Source of the DNA: an uncultured bacterium
GTDB taxonomy: Bacteria > SAR324 > NAC60-12
Reading direction: 5' to 3'
NCBI GenBank assembly: GCA_964010765.1
Contig: CAXGMD010000090.1
Span: forward strand, 1-11,009
DNA: 11,009 nucleotides
The first letter of the stretch is position 1. The number at the start of each line of letters is the position of its first letter. Below the pieces are notes generated by a model. It had not been told where the DNA came from and searched no databases. It worked only from the letters and a program-made list of their open reading frames with translations. Positions 1 through 11,009 of this stretch are shown piece after piece. The position numbers were made by a program, and so were the translations under genes.

Positions 1-163
1 CTGAGAGTCGTTGCATCTTCTGACCAAAGACGGAGCTGACGGGTTGCTTCCGGCAACTACTCTGCCTGTTGACCCTGTTACTTTGTTTCAAAAATTTAAC
101 AACAGGTGTCAAATATTATATTTGAATCGCTGACAATATTGCTAGATTTAAATCTTTTCGTCA

Positions 164-1156
164 TCACACCAACATATTTTCCAACTCTTGGAGTGCATCT
201 GCTGGTTGAATGCTGATCAAGCAGTTTGTGTGACTAAATTGGCAGGTTCGGTCGAAGCAGGGAGAGCAGGGCTCAGCTCGGTACAGGAAGCGAGCATGTG
301 GATTGAGAGGACGAGTCCAGGTGGGGGAGGTGGAACCAAAAATCGCTAGTTGAGGACGCTGTAACGCTGCCATGATGTGCATGCTACCAGAATCATTGCT
401 CAGCAATAATTTTGCTCTGGAGAGCAATGCCACGAGCTGCGGTAAGTTAGAACGACCACACCAGTTCTCAACACCAGACAGCCCGTGGGCGATTTTCTCG
501 CCGCTGGCATGATCCGCTGGAGTACCCAGAATCAGGATGGATTCATTCCACTTCTGAGCTAGCTGGGCGGCTACCTCATGGTAATACACTTCTGGCCACT
601 GCTTGGCTGGGCCATAGATCGCTCCAGGCGCCAACGCGATAAAACGTTTGGGCAAGGCTGGTAGACCTCGCAACTGTTCGCTGACCCACTCTTCGCTCAA
701 CTCAAGCTGAGGAAAAACCAACGGGATCTTGGAATCCTGCGGACTGAGAAGATGAAGGTACTCTTCAACAAGATGTCGTGTGCGCGGTTGCCAAGCAGGT
801 CGTATGGCCGGACGCAAGAGCCAGCGCCTGCCATCACCAGAGTAACCAATCCGTTCTGGAATGCGGCTGCGCCAAGCCATCCATGCAGAAGAAAAGCTGG
901 GTGGTAACACATAGATCCGTTGGTAATCTCGGCTGGCAAGCTCAGCACCAAAATCTCCTGCCTTGGTTAATTCTCGGTCAAAAGGTAAGAGAGTTCCCCG
1001 ATGAGGCAGCGGTAACCCTTCAAAGCCTTTGCGGACGATCAGGTCCACCGTTGCTTCGGGAAAACGTTCTAACACCGCCCGACAAAAAGCTGTCGCCATC
1101 ATCAGATCGCCCAACCAGTTCGGCATACGAATCAGAATCTTTGTTGGATCAGTCAT
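164..1156 (-). CDS. waaF: Lipopolysaccharide heptosyltransferase II (glycosyltransferase family 9)
   Basis: 330 aa. N-terminal KILIRMPNWLGDLMM, plus ALAPGAIYGPAKQWP and LLSNDSGSMHIMAAL...IFGST motifs typical of WaaF/RfaF; C-terminal PCSPCFDRTC...C motif. Confidence 0.9.
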   Translation of the reverse strand: MTDPTKILIRMPNWLGDLMMATAFCRAVLERFPEATVDLIVRKGFEGLPLPHRGTLLPFDRELTKAGDFGAELASRDYQRIYVLPPSFSSAWMAWRSRIPERIGYSGDGRRWLLRPAIRPAWQPRTRHLVEEYLHLLSPQDSKIPLVFPQLELSEEWVSEQLRGLPALPKRFIALAPGAIYGPAKQWPEVYYHEVAAQLAQKWNESILILGTPADHASGEKIAHGLSGVENWCGRSNLPQLVALLSRAKLLLSNDSGSMHIMAALQRPQLAIFGSTSPTWTRPLNPHARFLYRAEPCSPCFDRTCQFSHTNCLISIQPADALQELENMLV

Positions 1157-1233
1157 GAGATTGGATTTAGACTGGCAAGATTAAGCTTATTTGTATATTT
1201 TAATGTTTTATTAAAATTCGTTTCGAGGAAAAT

Positions 1234-1413
1234 ATGGACTTTCTTGGGTTGCTTGGTTTTGTCATCTTCTGGGTTGTATTGCAACGTTGGATTCTGCCGA
1301 AATTTGGGGTGCCCACCTGAATGAACCCCAACGTTTGCCGCGTGCCGGCAAAGAAAGAGAGGAATTTGTCAGAAGAAGAGCAGATCGTCAACAAGGTAGA
1401 GGGACCTGTCTAA
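1234..1413 (+). CDS. Candidate small membrane-anchored selenoprotein, 59 aa (TGA 1318-1320 read as Sec29); 28-aa membrane peptide if TGA is a stop
   Basis: GAGGA at 1225-1229, ATG at 1234. Manual translation: MDFLGLLGFVIFWVVLQRWILPKFGVPT-(TGA)-MNPNVCRVPAKKERNLSEEEQIVNKVEGPV-TAA(1411-1413). Hydrophobic helix at about residues 3-21; hairpin just downstream of the TGA. The read-through ORF fills the gap and ends 10 bp before the convergent purB stop. Confidence 0.7.
1334..1352 (+). promoter_or_regulatory. Putative bacterial SECIS element
   Basis: Perfect 7-bp stem TTTGCCG (1334-1340) / CGGCAAA (1346-1352) with 5-nt loop CGTGC. 20 nt separate the UGA from the loop, which has G at position 2 followed by U. 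This fits the general bacterial SECIS model. Confidence 0.65.
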
Positions 1414-1423
1414 GCGATCCACC

Positions 1424-2848
1424 TTAGAGAAGTGGTTCAGGCTTGATTGCTTGGGCGTTTGGGTGTTCGAAGACCAAGCGAGCCACTCTTTTCAGGAAGG
1501 CGTTCACCTGCTCTGGAGCCGAACCGACCAAACGCTCAGAGTCTGTAAGCAACAACTGGAGCTCTGGCAGGTCCAAAGGCAGTGTGGGATCTTCTGCCAA
1601 GCGCTGCAGCAGGTTGTTTTCCGAGCGAATTTCGCTGCGGAGCTCTTCCGCTACTTGTAGTGCGTGCTGCTTGATGCAGTCATGCAACTGCTCTCGACCT
1701 CCTCCCTTGCGCACGGCTGCCATCAAAATTGTTGTGGTTGCCAGGAAGGGGAGCTGCTGATCTACCTCACGGCGAATCAGATCTTCATAAAATCCCATCT
1801 CCTGTAAAATGGTCAGCATGGTCTCCAACTGACCATCAAAGGCCCAGAAGGCTCCGGGTAGAGCCACACGCCGAACAACTGAGCAGGCAACGTCGCCCTC
1901 ATTCCACTGGTCCCCACTGAGGCCCATCAGCATGTTCACGTACCCATTAAGCACCTGGTGCAAGCCATTAATACGCTCGGCATTGCGGGCGTTGACCTTG
2001 TGGGGCATTGCCGAAGAGCCAACCTGGCCAGACTGGAAGCCCTCTGTGAACAATCCCTGCCCTGCCATCAGTCGGAGTGTCTTGGCCAAGCTACTGATGC
2101 CAGAACTCAACCCGAACAAACAATGCACCACTTCTGTATCGAGACTGCGCGGATAGACCTGACCTACCGCCTGAAGCTGTGCTGGTCCGTCCAAGTGCTG
2201 GCAAACTGCTGCTTCTAGTTCACGAACCTTTTTTGGATCCTGTAAGAGGATATGCTGATCTAGCTGGGTTCCGACTGCACCTTGCAAACCACGCAAAGGA
2301 TAACCAGCACGCAAGCTTTGTAAGCGCTGGAGAGCCTGTAGCATCTCTTCCCCGAACATGGCGAGACGCTTCCCAAGAGTAGTTGGTTGGGCGGGAACAT
2401 TGTGTGTACGGGCCACCAGCAGCCAATCTCGGGTGCGCTCAGCCCAGCGGGCCAACTGATAGAGGACTGCGATGTACTTGTCTTCAAGGAGGGCTAGTGA
2501 GCGGAGAATCTGTAGCTGCTCAACGTTATCTGTCAGATCTCGGCTGGTCAGACCCTTGTGAATCTGCTGCTCTCCAGCCAAGTCACAAAATTCTTCGATA
2601 CGGGCCTTGACGTCATGCCGTAACACACGTTCACGTTCTGCGATTCGCTCTAGGTCAATCTGATCTTTGACTTGCTCATAAGCCTCAATCGCAGCGTCTG
2701 AAATTTCGACACCGACAGCCTGCTGTGCTTTCATCACAGCAATCCAGAACTCACGTTCCAGACGAATCTTTCCTGTTGCTGACCACAGTTCACACATTGC
2801 AGTGCTTGCGTAACGCTGAGCCAGAACGTCAGGAATCTGAGGTTTCAT
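1424..2848 (-). CDS. purB: Adenylosuccinate lyase
   Basis: 474 aa. Fumarase/ASL signature GSSAMPHKVN, RHDV (catalytic His region), IHKGLTSRD, RTHNVPAQPTTLGKR; N-terminal LAQRYAS. Confidence 0.95.
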   Translation of the reverse strand: MKPQIPDVLAQRYASTAMCELWSATGKIRLEREFWIAVMKAQQAVGVEISDAAIEAYEQVKDQIDLERIAERERVLRHDVKARIEEFCDLAGEQQIHKGLTSRDLTDNVEQLQILRSLALLEDKYIAVLYQLARWAERTRDWLLVARTHNVPAQPTTLGKRLAMFGEEMLQALQRLQSLRAGYPLRGLQGAVGTQLDQHILLQDPKKVRELEAAVCQHLDGPAQLQAVGQVYPRSLDTEVVHCLFGLSSGISSLAKTLRLMAGQGLFTEGFQSGQVGSSAMPHKVNARNAERINGLHQVLNGYVNMLMGLSGDQWNEGDVACSVVRRVALPGAFWAFDGQLETMLTILQEMGFYEDLIRREVDQQLPFLATTTILMAAVRKGGGREQLHDCIKQHALQVAEELRSEIRSENNLLQRLAEDPTLPLDLPELQLLLTDSERLVGSAPEQVNAFLKRVARLVFEHPNAQAIKPEPLL

Positions 2849-2862
2849 CAGGGAGGGTTTAC

Positions 2863-3834
2863 TTAGAGACCAACGCTATTGCGCACTCGTTTGCGAACTT
2901 CCAAAGCCACTCGTCGAGCTTTATCACGACCTTTTTCCAAAATTCCTTCCAGAGTCTCAGGCTGCTCGCGTAACTGAAAGTAAGCTTCCCGAGCTTCTCC
3001 CAATTCTCGCTCTACTGCCTCAAACAATTGCTGTTTCGCTTCACCGTAGCCCATTCCACCCGCTCGGTAGCGCTCTGCCAAAGTGGCTTGTTCTTCTACC
3101 GTGGCGAAGTGTCGATAGAGTTGGAAGATGTTGCACTGGTCAGGATCTTTAGAATCTTCCACTCCAAGAGAGTCGGTCTGAATCCGCATGATTGATTTAC
3201 GAACCTGCTTGGCAGGAGCAAACAAGGGAATCACATTGTTGTAGGACTTGCTCATCTTCTGACCATCCAGTCCTGGAATCGTTGCCACCTCTTCCCCAAT
3301 CAGTGGCTCAGGCACCACCAGCACATCCTCTCCGTAGAGATGGTTGAAGCGCAGGGCGATATCACGAGTCATTTCCAGATGTTGTTTCTGGTCCTTGCCA
3401 ACAGGCACAAAGTTCGAGTCGTAGAGTAGAATGTCTGCAGCCTGGAGGACTGGATAACAGAAGAGACCAAGATTGACTTCCTGCTGCTTAGACTCCGCGT
3501 CTTTGAAAGCGTGTGCTCGTTCCAGCAAGCCCTTGGCCGTGATACAGGAGAGGATCCAACTAAACTCGGTGACTTCTGGAATGTCGGACTGGCGGAAAAA
3601 GGTGTGCTGGTCGAAGTCCATACCCAAGGCAGCGAACACCGCCACCAGGTCATAAGTATGCCCCTTCAGCTGGGCGGGTTCCCGAACTGTGGTCAGAGCG
3701 TGGTAGTCAGCAATGAAGTAGAAGGTGTCGTGCGTTTGCTGCAATTGCAGTGCGGGTCTCAGGGCACCAAGGTAGTTGCCCAGATGGGGAGTGCCCGAAG
3801 GCTTAATGCCTGTCAGGGCACGCAAACGGCTCAT
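2863..3834 (-). CDS. trpS: Tryptophan--tRNA ligase
   Basis: [17 protein letters not shown] (HIGH-like), [24 protein letters not shown] and KMSKS motifs. Start reassigned to ATG at 3834 (MSRLRALTG), which overlaps the rpmA stop (ATGA). Confidence 0.96.
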
Positions 3835-4118
3835 GCTTCCGTAGCAGCCAGGGAAGCTTCTGCTGCCGCAGGGAGAACATTGATGAAACAACGGTCATTG
3901 CGCTTACGAGTGAAGCTGACCACACCATCACTGAGAGCAAAAAGCGTGTAGTCCTTGCCAACACCCACGTTTTGACCTGCATGGAAGGTAGTTCCTACTT
4001 GGCGTACTAGGATATTCCCTGCCTTAACGATCTGTCCACCAAAGCGCTTAACGCCGCGGCGTTTGCCGATTGAATCACGTCCGTTGCGGCTACTGCCGCC
4101 AGCCTTTTTGTGTGCCAT
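3831..4118 (-). CDS. rpmA: 50S ribosomal protein L27
   Basis: [29 protein letters not shown]...GNILVRQ...[12 protein letters not shown]; directly downstream of rplU. Confidence 0.98.
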
Positions 4119-4151
4119 GATACTTCCTAGAGGAAAGTTCAGAGATGAAGA

Positions 4152-4466
4152 TCAGGCGCTGATCTCAGAGATGCGCACCAGTGTGTATTGCTGTCGATGG
4201 CCCTGCTTGCGACGATAGCCTTTGCGGCGCTTGCGTTTGAACACGATGACCTTGCGATCTTTCATGTGCTCAACCACCTCGCCCTGCACCTTGGCACCAG
4301 AAACCACAGGCGTTCCCACACGAACCTCGCCATCATCTGTTTGGAGCAGCAACACCTGATCTGTCTCAAAGGTTGCGCCCTGCTCACTCTGCATGCGGTC
4401 CAGCCGTACTACCTCACCAGGCGTGACACGATGCTGACGGCCTCCGGCCTGAATGATTGCGTACAT
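4152..4466 (-). CDS. rplU: 50S ribosomal protein L21
   Basis: MYAIIQAGGRQHRV...KVIVFKRKRRKGYRRKQGHRQQYT; AGGAG RBS at 4477-4473 on the minus strand. Confidence 0.98.
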   Translation of the reverse strand: MYAIIQAGGRQHRVTPGEVVRLDRMQSEQGATFETDQVLLLQTDDGEVRVGTPVVSGAKVQGEVVEHMKDRKVIVFKRKRRKGYRRKQGHRQQYTLVRISEISA

Positions 4467-4510
4467 CAGACACTCCTAAAAATTGGAGATTGAAAGTTTC
4501 AAAACTTTAT

Positions 4511-4539
4511 AATTTAGAAAAAATCTATTTGGAATACAA
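4511..4539 (-). promoter_or_regulatory. Putative sigma70 promoter for rplU-rpmA-trpS-purB
   Basis: Minus strand TTGTAT (4539-4534), 17-bp spacer, TAAATT (4516-4511), in an AT-rich gap upstream of the rplU RBS. Confidence 0.55.
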
Positions 4540-4552
4540 GCTTTTTCTAGGC

Positions 4553-6070
4553 TCAGTTTTCTGCGATTCTCACGAAGACATCTCGCCCATCCCGCTGGTA
4601 ACTAATGATCTGGGCGGAAGCCTTGCTGAACAGTTCTCCAGCCTCGAAGAACACAACCTGAAAAGGCAGTTCTTCACCTTCCCGCAGGTTACGGTTGATC
4701 TCATTGCGTCCGTAGCGTTCCTTGTACTGCTCTCGAATGCGGCTCACACTCCACTCACTTAGTTCCTGATGAGACAGCACTACGCCGGCATATACTACTT
4801 GGCTTTCCAGAATTTTCTGGTCGTCATCAAAGGCCAAACCCTTGAGCCGGATCGAGCTGATATTGGAGAAATCTGAAAAATTTGAACGTACCGTTCCAGT
4901 CATCACATGAATCGCTTGACGACTGAAATTGTTACGAAATTTTTCAACCCGAAGATTACCAACAAACTCAAACTGGTGTAGTTGCACACCAACCAAACGA
5001 CTGAGCAAGGGAGAATCAACCATGTGCAGGTAGCCACCTGTCCAGAGGATCAACAAAAGACCCAAGCTTGCCAGTGTACTTACCAAAGTTAGTCGCCCCC
5101 AAGGGATGCCAGCTTCTGCTGTGGATTTCTCAAAAACCTGGCTGACCGTAGGAACTTCCTCTTTTGCCTTCGCTTGCTCTGGTGCTGGCCCAGGAGCTGG
5201 CAATTGCTTCAGTGGTGGCTTGGACGGTATCTCTGGTTTCGGTGGTATTGGTTTCTTCGGTTTCGACTCCGGCTTTGAAGCAGATTTGACTTCTGGCTTT
5301 GTTTCAGGGTTTGCTTCCGCTTTTGGAACAGGTTCAACTGCTGGCTTGGTAGGTGGCTTTGATGCTGCTGTTGTTTCGGGCTGAGTCGTAGGTTTTATTT
5401 TTGGAGGCGGTTTCGGTGCTGGGATTTCTGGAACTGCCCCATTGTCCTCAAACAAGGGTGTGCTGCTCTGCTCGTTTGGCTCTGATTTCTCAGGAAATGA
5501 TTCGTGAATTGCCCTTTCAAAGAGACTTTGGGCTTCTTCTGTTTCTTCCGTAGGAGGTGAATCGTGCAAAAGAGCTTCGGTGTCTTCTTTCTTCGGAGGA
5601 GCCTGCTCCAGCAGCGAGGGACTTTCCGAAACGGCAGGCTTGGGAGGTGGAATAAACTCTGCCCCTTGTGTTTTACGACCCGGTGGCAGTGGCACTCCCA
5701 GCAAACCACGCAATTCTTGAAGATCTGCTGGATTAGCCGGCTCTGAGTCAGAAATTCCAGCCAGTTCATCAGGGATCTGCAGCTTTTCCTGAGCAGGCGT
5801 GGGTGGTGAGGATGGCAGAACAGGTTCCACAGGTGGTGGCGCTGGCCGAGTCTCACTTTTTGTCAGAGTGGTTGAGCGTCGATAGGCAGCTTCCCCTTCT
5901 GGACTAGGTCTCAACTCAGGTGTATTGGCTTTGGTCTCACGATTAACAGAAGGTGGACCAGGTAGAGGAATCAGACAATTGCAATGAACACATTGCGATC
6001 TATGAGTATCCGGTAGAGCTTCGATAGCAAATTCGTAACGTCGATGACATTCCGGACATTGGATCAGCAT
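4553..6070 (-). CDS. Zinc-ribbon (MJ0042-type) protein with long Pro-rich linker, single TM helix and DUF3426-like C-terminal domain
   Basis: MLIQCPECHRRY...QCVHC (two CxxC). About 290 residues of P/E/K/S-rich low complexity, then TM LTLVSTLASLGLLLILWTGGYL. C-terminal domain with HVMTGTVRSN...IRLKGLAFD...LPFQVVF. ATG at 6070 preferred over GTG at 6082. Confidence 0.75.
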   Translation of the reverse strand: MLIQCPECHRRYEFAIEALPDTHRSQCVHCNCLIPLPGPPSVNRETKANTPELRPSPEGEAAYRRSTTLTKSETRPAPPPVEPVLPSSPPTPAQEKLQIPDELAGISDSEPANPADLQELRGLLGVPLPPGRKTQGAEFIPPPKPAVSESPSLLEQAPPKKEDTEALLHDSPPTEETEEAQSLFERAIHESFPEKSEPNEQSSTPLFEDNGAVPEIPAPKPPPKIKPTTQPETTAASKPPTKPAVEPVPKAEANPETKPEVKSASKPESKPKKPIPPKPEIPSKPPLKQLPAPGPAPEQAKAKEEVPTVSQVFEKSTAEAGIPWGRLTLVSTLASLGLLLILWTGGYLHMVDSPLLSRLVGVQLHQFEFVGNLRVEKFRNNFSRQAIHVMTGTVRSNFSDFSNISSIRLKGLAFDDDQKILESQVVYAGVVLSHQELSEWSVSRIREQYKERYGRNEINRNLREGEELPFQVVFFEAGELFSKASAQIISYQRDGRDVFVRIAEN

Positions 6071-6159
6071 GGCGGGCAGCACGAATTGGATACGGGAAGG
6101 GAGTCGGCTTTTCGAAGGGGATCAAGCTATCGGAGGTCCCTCAGAGATGCCAGTTTTTT

Positions 6160-6834
6160 TTAGCTGAATTCAGCATGCTGCTTTCGCAACCACGTTGCCA
6201 ATTCTATTGGAGAATCAACCACCAAGCGCGCTCCATGCTCCTGAAGTTCTTCAACTTTCCGAAAACCCCAACTAACTCCAATCGGGCAACTGCCCGCATT
6301 CGTAGCGGTCTCTATATCGACACTGGTATCTCCAACCAAGCAGAGTGCCCCGACTGGCAAGCTAAGTTCTTGAGCAATCAGTTGCATCCCAGTTGGATCT
6401 GGCTTTCGGGGAATACCAGCTTGTTGCCCTCGGACAACTCGGAAAGGCCAAGCTCCAAGGAAATGCTGCACGCATTGTTGTGTAAAGGCATCTGGCTTAT
6501 TTGAAAGAACCGCCAAGGGCCAAGCGGCTTGAGTCAATTCATCCAGCAAGTCCGCGATTCCAGCATAGAGGCAAGTCTGCCGCTTCCAACCAAGGGCATA
6601 CTCTTCTTCAAAGGCTTCCAGTAGCCGATCACGCCATTCATCGGAGGCACATGTTTGGGGCAGTATCTGCTCCATCAAGCGGCTAGCGCCTTCCCCCACA
6701 AAATAGCGATAACGCTCCAGAGGGTGTGTTGGTAGGTCAAATCGTAGCAATGCAGCATTTGCTGCATTGCCAATATCTGCCAATGTGTCGAGCAGAGTGC
6801 CATCGAGATCAAAACAAATTGCTTGAATGCGCAT
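6160..6834 (-). CDS. HAD-superfamily hydrolase, phosphoglycolate phosphatase-like
   Basis: Motif I FDLDGTLLDT, motif II VLSNK, motifs III/IV KPDP...VGDTSVDIETA...GVSWGFR. Start probably ATG 6834 (alternatively 6846), not 6939. Confidence 0.88.
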   Translation of the reverse strand: MRIQAICFDLDGTLLDTLADIGNAANAALLRFDLPTHPLERYRYFVGEGASRLMEQILPQTCASDEWRDRLLEAFEEEYALGWKRQTCLYAGIADLLDELTQAAWPLAVLSNKPDAFTQQCVQHFLGAWPFRVVRGQQAGIPRKPDPTGMQLIAQELSLPVGALCLVGDTSVDIETATNAGSCPIGVSWGFRKVEELQEHGARLVVDSPIELATWLRKQHAEFS

Positions 6835-6922
6835 TGAGTCCTTCATCAGATTTTTACAAAAAATAAACTTGGTTTCACTGCTAGTGGTAACGAAGATTAA
6901 CTCACTACTACTGAAAAGACGC

Positions 6923-6952
6923 TTGACCGTCAACCTCATCTTATGTTAACAA
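6923..6952 (+). promoter_or_regulatory. Possible sigma70 promoter for the atp operon
   Basis: TTGACC (6923-6928), 18-bp spacer ending in TG-n, then TAACAA (6947-6952); lies in the divergent intergenic region. The -10 match is weak. Confidence 0.35.
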
Positions 6953-7037
6953 ATTTGCTTCTCTTCAATCTGCTTCCTGAAAGAAAGCTCCGACAAATCG
7001 AAACTGCTCACATCTCACAAGACTGAAGGCAAAGGGA

Positions 7038-7517
7038 ATGGATTACAAACAAGCGATCATTGAAAACGCCTGGGGTGGCGTGGCGGTAGACTATGGTCTG
7101 CTGCATTTCCAATTAGCAACTCCAATCGTAACACTAGTGATCATCTTCATTGTTTACAAATCCCTAAATTCTTTCCTATTCCAACCTGTTTTGCGTACCA
7201 TTGATCAGCGTGAAAAATTCATTCAGGATCGGCGAGACCGAGTAGCTGTTCTGGCTAAAGAGATTGAGACCCTTGGAGAACAGCTTGATCAGAAACTCCA
7301 TGTTGCCCGCGCAGAAGTAGCACATGTGATGAATGAAGCTTACGAACAAAGTCACAAGCACCGCGAAGAGACTATTCTGAAGCAACGAGATCTGCTGGAG
7401 AAAGAGGCCCGCAGTGCTCATGAACGCCTGATTGCCGAGACGGACCAGGCACGAGCAACTCTGCAACAATTGACGGAAGAATTGTCAGAACGGACTGTGG
7501 ACCGCCTGCTCAACTAA
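7038..7517 (+). CDS. atpF2: F0F1 ATP synthase subunit b'
   Basis: 159 aa. TM segment followed by LNSFLFQPVLRTIDQREKFI and a long coiled coil; first of two tandem b-type genes before atpH. Confidence 0.85.
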   Translation: MDYKQAIIENAWGGVAVDYGLLHFQLATPIVTLVIIFIVYKSLNSFLFQPVLRTIDQREKFIQDRRDRVAVLAKEIETLGEQLDQKLHVARAEVAHVMNEAYEQSHKHREETILKQRDLLEKEARSAHERLIAETDQARATLQQLTEELSERTVDRLLN

Positions 7518-7571
7518 CTTCCCTCCTTGCCGCTCCCCTTTATGGGATTCATGATGAGAAAGGACCGTATA

Positions 7572-8144
7572 ATGATGAAGAGAACCGGCATGTATAGCGT
7601 GTTGCTGACTGGACTACTTTGGTCAGCGCCACTCTGGGCTGCTGGAGAAGAAGGACAATCCTCAATGCTGGACTTCTTCTGGAAAGTAGTGAATACGATC
7701 ATTCTGCTGGCGATCCTCTACTATTTTGCTCGCAAACCCATTAGTAGCGCTTTGGGGAAGTCTGCAGAAGAAGCTAAAGCTACTATCGAGGAAGCACGCC
7801 AGGCCGAACAGCGCATCGAAGAAGAATTGACCAAAGCACGTGAAAAATTGGAGAAGGTAGAGCATGAAGCAACAGAGATGATTGCGAAAGCCAAAGTCAC
7901 TGCAGAAACTGAGCGTCAGCGAATTCTGGAGGAAGGTGAGGCTGAGGCAAAAAGAATCACTGACTATGCGCGCTTCACCATCGAGCAAGAATTCAAAAAA
8001 GCTGAATATGACCTGCGTCGCTGGGTAGCTGGAGTGACCATTGATCTAGCCGAAGAGAAGTTGCAGCAACGTGTCAATGCAGACCAGCAGAAAAAACTGA
8101 TTCAAGATTTTGTTGATGAATTGCCGAGCGGAGGAAGCCGATGA
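7572..8144 (+). CDS. atpF: F0F1 ATP synthase subunit b
   Basis: FFWKVVNTIILLAILYYFARKPI followed by a coiled coil ending QQKKLIQDFVDEL. Start reassigned to ATG 7572 (AGGA at 7561-7564). Stop overlaps the atpH start (ATGA). Confidence 0.9.
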   Translation: MMKRTGMYSVLLTGLLWSAPLWAAGEEGQSSMLDFFWKVVNTIILLAILYYFARKPISSALGKSAEEAKATIEEARQAEQRIEEELTKAREKLEKVEHEATEMIAKAKVTAETERQRILEEGEAEAKRITDYARFTIEQEFKKAEYDLRRWVAGVTIDLAEEKLQQRVNADQQKKLIQDFVDELPSGGSR

Positions 8145-8695
8145 GCCAAATGGTGATTGCCCGCAGATATGCTTCGGCACTTTCCAACCTTGCCAAGAAA
8201 GAAAATAATCTGGAGCAAGTTGGCACTGAATTGCAGGACTTCTGTGATACTCTGCACGAAGCCGCTGAATTGCAGGAAAGTTTGAGCAACAACAAAGTCC
8301 CAATGGCGGTGCGCAATAGCATCCTGACAGAAATTCTGACCAAAATGGAATTGTCTACATTAGTCAGTACCTTTCTCCGCTACCTACTCAGTAAACGCCG
8401 CCTGACACTTGTTCATGATATTGCTCGGGCGTTCGCCTTGTTGACCCAAGAGGCGATGGGAATTCTTCCCGCAGAAGTCACGGTCGCCAAAGAACCACGC
8501 AGCAAAGAGAGCAAAGACCTGCTACAGAAACTGCAGGAACAACTCTCTGCCAGTACTGGCAAGACCGTACAAATCCATGTCTCAGTGGATCCTTCCATCA
8601 TCGGCGGTATCGTCACACGCATCGGTTCGATGGTGATCGACGGGAGCATCCGCAACCAACTTATCCAAGTCCGTGAATCGATCATCAGGGGTTGA
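8141..8695 (+). CDS. atpH: F0F1 ATP synthase subunit delta
   Basis: IARRYASAL and VDPSIIGGIVTRIGSMVIDGSIRNQL motifs; GGAGG RBS upstream. Confidence 0.96.
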   Translation: MSQMVIARRYASALSNLAKKENNLEQVGTELQDFCDTLHEAAELQESLSNNKVPMAVRNSILTEILTKMELSTLVSTFLRYLLSKRRLTLVHDIARAFALLTQEAMGILPAEVTVAKEPRSKESKDLLQKLQEQLSASTGKTVQIHVSVDPSIIGGIVTRIGSMVIDGSIRNQLIQVRESIIRG

Positions 8696-10210
<1,515 letters not shown>

Positions 10211-10224
10211 GTGCTAAGCTATCC

Positions 10225-10249
10225 TGTGCCCGGCTTACAGCTGGGTACA
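10225..10249 (+). promoter_or_regulatory. Intercistronic RNA hairpin between atpA and atpG
   Basis: TGTGCCCGGCT / AGCTGGGTACA form an 11-bp stem with two G-U pairs and a TAC loop; no U-tract follows. Confidence 0.55.
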
Positions 10250-10266
10250 CTTCAACGTGAGATCTG

Positions 10267-11009
10267 ATGCCCAGCCTCAAAGAAATCCGCAATCGAATCA
10301 CTAGCGTCAAAAAGACGCAGAAGACCACTAGCGCGATGAAGATGGTCTCCGCTGCTAAGCTGAACCGAGCTGAAGACACTATCCGACGCGCTCGACCCTA
10401 TTCAGTAAAGCTGAGAGAAGTTGTCTCTTCTCTCTCCGGCAAGTTAACGCCAGATGACAATCCTCTTTTTCGAGATCAAGCAGGGGAGCGTGTCGCCGTA
10501 ATCCTCATGACCTCAGACCGAGGTCTCTGTGGAGGTTTCAATGCTAATCTTTGTAAAATGCTGGCCCGAACTCTCCATGAAGAGGGCATAGATAGCGCAG
10601 AGATGCACATCGTTGGAAGGAAGGGTCGAGACTTTTTCCGCCGTACCAACCACCAGATTGCAGCAGACTATCCTGATGCTAGACCAGAACACTATTTAGA
10701 TATTGTCTTCACAGTACTTGATGGGTTGACCACAAGATTTGCTGCTGAGGAATTAGATAAAGTCTATCTGGTCTTCAACGAATATAAGAGTATCTTAACT
10801 CAAGAGCCAACCATCCAACCCTTGCTGCCGATCAGACCGCTCGAAGACGCAGAGGAAGAAGGGGAACAGGAAATTCTCTTCGAACCTTATATCGAAGAAC
10901 TCATCGGCCCCTTGGTTCAGCAGTATATACAGAATCAAATGTATACAGCTTGGTTAGGAACCTTGGCCGGAGAACACGCAGCCCGAATGACAGCGATGGA
11001 CTCTGCCAC
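10267..11009 (+). CDS. atpG: F0F1 ATP synthase subunit gamma (3' end truncated by window)
   Basis: Manual translation: MPSLKEIRNRITSVKKTQKTTSAMKMVSAAKL...TSDRGLCGGFNAN...GEHAARMTAMDSA, open to the end of the window. Absent from the ORF track because there is no stop in the window. Confidence 0.97.
   Translation, partial: MPSLKEIRNRITSVKKTQKTTSAMKMVSAAKLNRAEDTIRRARPYSVKLREVVSSLSGKLTPDDNPLFRDQAGERVAVILMTSDRGLCGGFNANLCKMLARTLHEEGIDSAEMHIVGRKGRDFFRRTNHQIAADYPDARPEHYLDIVFTVLDGLTTRFAAEELDKVYLVFNEYKSILTQEPTIQPLLPIRPLEDAEEEGEQEILFEPYIEELIGPLVQQYIQNQMYTAWLGTLAGEHAARMTAMDSA

Follow-up and report, generated by a model that had tools for sequence, protein, structure and literature searches.

A probable membrane-anchored small selenoprotein gene in an uncultured SAR324 bacterium, and the widespread Sec/Cys family to which it belongs

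Here we describe a small gene on the forward strand of an 11,009-nucleotide (nt) stretch of DNA from an uncultured bacterium of the marine phylum SAR324 (GenBank assembly GCA_964010765.1, contig CAXGMD010000090.1, positions 1 to 11,009; the whole stretch is called the window below). The gene, at positions 1234-1413, is very probably a real, unannotated selenoprotein gene, belonging to an uncatalogued and widespread family with either selenocysteine (Sec) or cysteine (Cys) at one position. Its 59-residue product, translated with TGA as U, is MDFLGLLGFVIFWVVLQRWILPKFGVPT-U-MNPNVCRVPAKKERNLSEEEQIVNKVEGPV, and would consist of an N-terminal transmembrane (TM) helix (residues ~2-23), the segment L-P-K-F-G-V-P-T-Sec29-x5-Cys35 at the membrane surface, and a charged disordered tail. 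The UGA at 1318-1320 would be decoded as Sec by SelA, SelB, SelD and tRNA-Sec of the host, with a hairpin at 1334-1352 guiding SelB. We infer that this decoding follows the standard bacterial mechanism, which is ordinary and textbook; the family appears to be new, and the function put forward below is tentative.

The reading frame opens with an ATG at 1234 and runs through 28 hydrophobic N-terminal codons to the TGA, followed by 30 sense codons and a TAA at 1411-1413. An initial annotation of the window, made from its letters without database searches, had proposed a hidden membrane selenopeptide here, and the ribosome-binding site (RBS), ATG, TM helix, TGA at codon 29, 30 further codons and Cys35 that it listed all match base for base. 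Variable sites in the N-terminal codons are distributed over the three codon positions as 31/7/57, which is a coding pattern.

The in-frame TGA is shared with relatives of the host. A six-frame search of 45 genomes of the taxonomic family (E<1e-5) finds the gene at 24 places, with an in-frame TGA in the same column at all 24. A profile of 15 Sec sequences, searched over all 88 genomes of the phylum, recovers 43 places at E<=1.8e-4, of which 42 (in 41 genomes) have the TGA; at the 43rd (genome G007) the contig ends right after profile position 28, and two weaker matches (E 0.003 and 0.009) look like chance. The consensus of the 42 loci is M-D-x(10)-W-x-x-L-Q-x-W-x-L-P-K-x-G-[VI]-[PS]-T-U-M-x-P-x-x-C-R-V-P. 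When metagenomes were scanned with P0004, a close variant that has Cys29, as the query, TGA occupied the column in 38 of 38 loci; the DNA of P0004 itself is not among these 38, all of them TGA forms. The second Cys is kept in 26 of 36 distinct phylum forms and in 28 of 30 distinct metagenome forms, the tails of the latter being U-x4-C in 24, U-x5-C in 4 and without the second Cys in 2. That TGA, reading frame and hairpin recur together at 42 places, in 41 genomes of relatives, is more than chance. A stop followed by an independent ORF (open reading frame) starting from the next ATG was considered and rejected: the codon after the TGA is GGC, not ATG, in one genus, so that stop-then-restart is not a general reading, and the Cys forms read through.

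Many database homologs have Cys in the same column. The Sec profile, searched against 1.84 billion representative proteins, matches 886 at E<=1e-3. The best 150 of these were classified by the residue in the UGA column: 97 have Cys, 18 Trp, 4 Arg, 2 Gly, 2 Glu and 1 Ser, and the remaining 26 end there. The Trp and Gly entries are probably TGA forms read with another code, since TGA is Trp or Gly in translation tables 4 and 25. Of the Cys forms among the best 150, 78 of the 96 measured have C-x4-C, typically as G-[VI]-P-T-C-M-S-G-A-C, and the family as a whole can be described by the consensus W-x-x-L-[QN]-x-W-[IV]-L-P-x-x-G-[VI]-x-T-[U/C]-x4-5-C. Sec and Cys forms thus have column and spacing in common, as is classic for selenoprotein families. 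The initial annotation had named homologs with Cys or TGA at position 29 as support and homologs with TAA or TAG as refutation; the position holds TGA (42 phylum places and 38/38 metagenome loci) or Cys (97 of the best 150), and no TAA or TAG homologs were found. Its mention of small proteins in which the motif W-x-LP-x-x-GV-x-T precedes Cys or a stop also proved accurate, the family being represented in the databases by truncated or Cys forms only. With no more than 28 codons ahead of the UGA, the Sec forms escape gene callers.

The Cys forms extend the family well beyond the host phylum. When named genomes were scanned with 24 Cys forms, 211 out of 226 candidate stretches were confirmed. Going by record titles, the best 80 of the 211 loci are mostly from Planctomycetota (Thermoguttaceae, Planctomycetaceae, Pirellulales, Isosphaeraceae), with some from Acidobacteriota, 'Deltaproteobacteria' and Nitrospirota; the planctomycetes with a Cys form include the cultured Lacipirellula limnantheis I41 and Tundrisphaera lichenicola P12. 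A profile search of 5.8 billion clusters gives 1048 members, and among the 120 matches listed all names are 'hypothetical protein' and none has a Pfam domain. As a separate observation, a single frame in P0106 (208 aa) joins a Cys form to an entire thioredoxin; the fusion may be natural, or may come from reading through two neighbouring genes.

The hairpin downstream of the UGA is present in the minimum free energy fold of the 55 nt from the UGA, with its stem starting 13 nt after the UGA and its loop from +21. The 7-bp stem described in the initial annotation is therefore real in the predicted fold, and the distance of 20 nt from the UGA given there applies to the loop (~20 nt) but not to the stem. 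Conservation was measured by counting the 7-pair helix in an ungapped alignment of the 42 phylum loci that extends 5 nt upstream and 39 nt downstream of the TGA. Paired cells make up 77.7% (65.1 +/- 1.5 in shuffled alignments), double-sided changes number 42 (15.4 +/- 3.1) and the covariation score is 0.357 (0.153), none of which is reached in any of 500 shuffles; with the partner column slid by 1-3 positions, the score is at most 0.174. At pair 26:36, 23 sequences have C-G and 10 have U-A, and in one genus a wholly different stem (CGCCGA/UCGGCG, with a GGU loop) occupies the same place. The slid control and this whole-stem replacement weigh more than the shuffles, because the shuffle control ignores relatedness.

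Comparable hairpins accompany the TGA in other lineages. Of the distinct Sec forms from metagenomes, 26 are non-congeneric, and 24 of these 26 show a perfect stem of 5-9 bp with the loop starting at +16 to +25; the stems are mutually unrelated, and the loops are GUC (10), GGU, AGGU, GGUC and similar. The spacing and loop of the hairpin in the window match the model of the bacterial selenocysteine insertion sequence (bSECIS) as set out in a 2026 review (PMC13188914), in which a small apical loop, 16-37 nt from the UGA, has near its start a G that is often followed by G/U. In fixed register, the Sec forms have 5.5 of 7 pairs, versus 2.98 of 7 in 47 Cys-form loci (2.74 at register -3), where the best hairpin position is scattered. 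The hairpin is not kept in the Cys forms, in line with the expectation of the initial annotation that it would occur in TGA versions only. We take the conserved, covarying hairpin as the predicted selenocysteine insertion sequence (SECIS) of the gene.

The components for Sec decoding, for which the initial annotation proposed to check the source genome, are all found in the 92% complete host assembly: selA (match of 437 bits), selB (a SelB winged-helix domain within a 664-residue frame), selC (tRNA-Sec with anticodon TCA, Rfam 60 bits and also ARAGORN) and selD (378 bits). TGA is the ordinary stop of 7 of the 11 conserved genes in the window. The code in use is therefore the standard one, and an alternative genetic code was rejected on this basis. 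Across the phylum, SelA is found in 75 of 88 genomes and in 39 of the 42 genomes with the small gene, the three gene-carrying genomes without it being 61-75% complete, and five genomes of four SelA-less families lack the small gene too. The trait is near-universal in the phylum, which makes the co-occurrence weak evidence. The selD gene of the host is also a selenoprotein gene (..TCG-U-AAKL..; contig C141, TGA at 1528), with a stem CAACCC/GGGUUG and a GGUC loop 11 nt after its own UGA.

Translation beyond the UGA is suggested by the state of the downstream frame. Past the TGA, all 33 of 33 non-redundant forms keep frame 0 open, over 19-40 codons (median 28), whereas the other two frames are open for 0 to 451 codons and reach >=20 codons in only 16 and 15 of the 33. 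A hydrophilic tail is found in every case. Variation within the genus affects 18 of 90 sites of the tail, compared with 30 of 60 sites of the upstream spacer and 10 of 84 sites of the N-terminus, and variable sites over the ten codons of the hairpin are distributed by codon position as 5/7/15.

Several observations weigh against the selenoprotein reading, and some of them favor a rival in which the gene ends at the UGA and encodes a 28-residue membrane micropeptide, the hairpin being a regulatory or stabilising RNA element and the downstream frame untranslated. The distal tail is nearly without codon-position bias (50/40/56), and its variable codons comprise 10 that are synonymous-only and 68 that are non-synonymous. 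The case for translation therefore rests on the openness, length and composition of the frame and not on conservation, the distal tail being apparently free to vary, as disordered tails are. Of the conservation past the TGA that the initial annotation expected, the open frame and U/C-x4-5-C are kept, and the distal tail is only weakly constrained. C-R-V-P of the phylum consensus is encoded by the top of the hairpin, so that part of the 'protein' conservation is RNA constraint. Two congeneric relatives (G031, locus L018, and G033, locus L019) have a second TGA at the Cys35 codon, six codons on, together with a hairpin weakened to 5 of 7 pairs, which may reflect decay of the gene; the second TGA could alternatively be a second recoding site. 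At locus L017 the same codon position has TGG. The absence of the second Cys from 10 of the 36 distinct phylum forms means that a Sec-Cys couple is not obligatory. Arg stands in the Sec column in 4 of the best 150 entries (P0002, P0007, P0049, P0095), and P0002 and P0007 are otherwise near-identical to the phylum Sec forms L013 and L024; these are possibly CGA variants or an artefact. In favor of the gene, contigs from 4 metatranscriptome runs (four studies) cover it without change at 1318-1320, one spanning 1129-1465 without difference and another 1255-1700, and their variants are synonymous or conservative ones also present among genomes; but DNA may be present in RNA libraries, and neither strand nor level can be read from contigs, so that this coverage shows presence only.

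The 26 entries of the best 150 that end at T28 would also fit a micropeptide, but they reflect gene calling only. The micropeptide does not account for the 97 entries of the best 150 that read through with Cys and keep C-x4-C, or for a frame that stays open in all 33 forms. In its spacing and G/U loop the hairpin corresponds to a bSECIS; it is missing in Cys forms, is followed by no T run on either strand, and matches no Rfam family. Taken with this evidence, the micropeptide is very improbable, and the selenoprotein reading is kept in what follows.

AlphaFold2, run on a 63-row alignment, predicts the helix with confidence (Table 1) and leaves the protein outside it unstructured, with a predicted local distance difference test score (pLDDT) of 53-67. 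The N-terminus is acidic, and K23, R36, K40, K41 and R43 follow the helix. By the positive-inside rule, the positive charges after the helix would place the Sec/Cys pair on the cytoplasmic face. A profile search against PDB sequences returned only chance matches to transmembrane segments (E>=0.1).

Table 1. Features of the small gene and its immediate surroundings (positions in the window)
Feature	Position	Strand	Remarks
Predicted selenoprotein coding sequence (CDS), 59 residues	1234..1413	+	Stop included; translation with TGA=U
RBS GAGGA	1225..1229	+	4 nt 5' of ATG; similar purine-rich motif kept within genus
Predicted single TM helix, residues 2-23	1237..1302	+	AlphaFold2 pLDDT ~90; conserved W13, L16, Q17, W19, L21, P22
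UGA predicted to be read as Sec (residue 29), after G-V-P-T	1318..1320	+	TGA invariant at 42 phylum places and in 38/38 metagenome loci; Cys in 97 of best 150
Predicted SECIS hairpin, 7-bp stem	1334..1352	+	Arms TTTGCCG 1334-1340/CGGCAAA 1346-1352, loop CGUGC 1341-1345
Cys35 codon TGC (U-x5-C)	1336..1338	+	Within 5' arm of hairpin
Hydrophilic, charged C-terminal tail, probably disordered	1354..1410	+	pLDDT 53-67; weakly constrained
Promoter-like site CTGGCA-16 nt-TATATT	1172..1199	+	77-nt divergent intergenic region; consensus scan

The small gene lies between a divergent family-9 glycosyltransferase gene of the heptosyltransferase type (164-1156, reverse strand) and a convergent purB (ORF 1424-2848, reverse strand), as the initial annotation had it, with the stop of purB 10 nt from the TAA. 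These flanks are constant within the genus and found only there, a context that is uninformative as to function. The promoter-like site is a candidate from the consensus scan alone, which gave 2 sites against 0.4 expected. No terminator-like site was found, and there is no T run 3' of the hairpin on either strand; intrinsic termination of purB or of the small gene was accordingly rejected as a reading. An Rfam scan of 1100-1600 gave no family match. An antisense ORF (1200-1394, reverse strand, 64 codons, TTG start) is probably spurious, the codon-position pattern fitting the forward strand.

Elsewhere in the window, the longest trpS frame (2863-3891, reverse strand), which has a TTG start, overlaps the end of rpmA (3831-4118, reverse strand) by 61 nt, and the real trpS start is probably further downstream. 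A 509-residue ORF between rplU and a HAD hydrolase gene (4553-6082, reverse strand) shows nothing beyond a weak zinc-ribbon match at its N-terminus (E 1.4e-4, short of the Pfam cut-off). Two ATP synthase b-type genes (7038-8144, forward strand; 159 and 205 aa) are followed by atpH, atpA and atpG, which is the b/b' arrangement.

The initial annotation could not assign the protein to a named family, and the searches made here leave it equally without one. Pfam and NCBIfam scans of the Sec form and 17 small Cys forms give no family; in NCBIfam release 20.0, sequences P0001 and P0004 match 0 families at E<=10, and the 17 Cys forms have no family-specific match at E<=1. The ESM Atlas contributes one 'hypothetical protein' cluster (score 0.85), which is a lead only. 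Table 1 of the review cited above (PMC13188914), which covers 119 selenoprotein families, has no small single-pass family with this motif, and passages of the deep-Sep paper (PMC12013277) and of the preprint by Haft and Gwadz (10.1101/2022.07.06.499078) describe other families. In full-text searches of the literature, supplements aside, we found no description of a small membrane Sec/Cys family, and the family appears to be undescribed so far.

The gene resembles bacterial selenoprotein genes with an intragenic SECIS, such as E. coli fdhF, in having an in-frame UGA, a hairpin within the coding sequence with a G/U loop ~20 nt on, Cys homologs, and selA, selB, selC and selD in the genome. It differs from classical bacterial selenoproteins in that the protein is far smaller and membrane-anchored, with a frame of 28 codons before the UGA. 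The eukaryotic selenoproteins SELENOK and SELENOS have one N-terminal TM helix and a disordered, charged cytosolic tail that contains Sec. The likeness to these is one of architecture only (P0001 has no Pfam family at E<=0.01): Sec in the present protein would stand beside the membrane and be specified by a bacterial SECIS within the ORF, whereas theirs is near the C-terminus and depends on an element in the 3' untranslated region.

Among bacterial membrane proteins, the YgaP-like TM domain (PF11127, formerly DUF2892) ends in W-[IL]-L-x-K-L-G-x-x-x-C (as in W-L-L-A-K-L-G-L-x-R-C), which may be compared with W-I-L-P-K-L-G-V-P-T-C of the present family. That domain has two helices and the present family one; the family has no Pfam match to PF11127 even at E<=1, and profile-profile comparison (hhalign) with YgaP-like neighbours is not significant (probability 1.5%, E 0.033, 14 columns). 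The FeoB-associated Cys-rich membrane protein and the MerE/MerT-type proteins have short membrane anchors followed by a cytoplasmic Cys cluster, but their motif and spacing differ from those of the present family, and no NCBIfam or Pfam model for them matched.

Gene neighbourhoods were compiled from the nearest flanking ORFs only, as raw counts, for 30 phylum Sec loci and 47 Cys-form loci (93 neighbours). At the Sec loci, thioredoxin adjoins the small gene in 6 (L021, L022, L024, L069, L079, L080), a thioredoxin-reductase-like (TrxB-like) flavoprotein of ~312 residues in 4 of one genus (L059, L061, L066, L084), ArsR-family regulators in 4 (L022, L024, L027, L029), and a metallo-beta-lactamase-fold protein (MBL) in 2, where the order is ArsR - MBL - small gene - thioredoxin - Usp. 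SAM (S-adenosylmethionine) methyltransferases occur in 3 (L026, L028, L033), an ArsA ATPase at L026 and two NosL genes at L023, and TauE adjoins one Sec form (L184). At the Cys loci, the upstream neighbour is a zf-HC2 anti-sigma factor in 10 and a metallo-beta-lactamase-rhodanese fusion in 6, an architecture which is that of bacterial persulfide dioxygenases such as CstB and Blh, while a TauE/SafE sulfite-exporter-type permease lies downstream in 4. Further neighbours of Cys forms are thioredoxin (6), YgaP-like TM proteins (4), HlyD adaptors (4), Cyt_bd_oxida_I-like proteins (3), Usp with DUF302 (3), DsbD_TM-thioredoxin fusions (2), ArsR (2) and MerR (1, at L160).

Two further observations concern single lineages or loci. 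At six loci of a second family of the phylum (L074-L078, L083), the small Sec gene always adjoins a methylpurine-DNA glycosylase gene, a synteny that is lineage-specific and has no obvious functional link. Near the metagenome Sec form L188 there is a gene of the C_GCAxxG_C_C family (2020-3018, reverse strand), which the review (PMC13188914) lists among selenoprotein families.

The common thread of these neighbours is thiol and sulfur redox chemistry, and we therefore prefer, tentatively, a function as a thioredoxin-recycled selenol/thiol couple at the membrane surface. In this proposal, the Sec/Cys pair on the cytoplasmic face would cycle between the selenol/thiol and selenenylsulfide states with thioredoxin as reductant, and could act as a redox or sulfur-relay site in responses to thiol, persulfide or sulfite stress. 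The neighbourhoods are heterogeneous, however, and many loci, that of the window included, are flanked by unrelated housekeeping genes, which counts against the proposal. A more specific version is doubtful but worth stating: that the protein is a single-pass bacterial architectural counterpart of SELENOK/SELENOS of ~55 residues, whose selenol at the cytoplasmic surface might trap or relay reactive sulfur species (persulfide, sulfite) or lipid-proximal oxidants and be recycled by thioredoxin.

Two other functions for a selenoprotein are each unlikely on present evidence. Sec/Cys pairs bind soft metals well, and the pair could instead be a ligand that passes ions (arsenic, copper, mercury, selenium) to or from a transporter or methyltransferase. 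This is the context suggested by ArsR, the SAM methyltransferases, ArsA ATPase and NosL beside some Sec loci, and by MerR at L160 and the HlyD-type efflux adaptors at 4 Cys-form loci; but neighbours of the thioredoxin, thioredoxin-reductase-like, metallo-beta-lactamase-rhodanese, TauE and YgaP-like types occur no less often, ArsR-family regulators include persulfide sensors, and no metal transporter is a consistent partner. The protein might also be an accessory subunit of a larger membrane protein (TauE, YgaP-like, DsbD/CcdA or cytochrome-bd-like), held by the helix Gln/Asn, with Sec/Cys tuning or gating its partner. The polar Q/N17 conserved within the helix, together with W13 and W19, would suit such contacts, as would the TauE, YgaP-like, DsbD_TM-thioredoxin and Cyt_bd_oxida_I-like neighbours of the Cys forms and the TauE gene at L184; yet no single partner is conserved, and no membrane partner is encoded near the gene in the window. 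The thioredoxin-recycled couple remains the preferred, if tentative, function.

The family comprises >1000 sequence clusters from Planctomycetota, Acidobacteriota, deltaproteobacterial lineages, Nitrospirota and the marine phylum of the host. It would add a widespread membrane micro-selenoprotein to a catalogue of mostly soluble enzymes, and if the SELENOK/SELENOS likeness holds, this bacterial protein would be among the smallest selenoproteins known. It also points to a systematic blind spot, in which a frame of 28 codons leads to truncated or missing gene calls and only the Cys forms are recorded; if the reading proposed here is correct, the selenoproteomes of many environmental bacteria are under-counted, their Sec forms being absent from gene calls. 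The recurrent neighbours suggest a connection of selenium use with thiol or sulfur stress at the membrane that can be put to the test, and the presence of Cys forms in cultured planctomycetes makes genetic study feasible.

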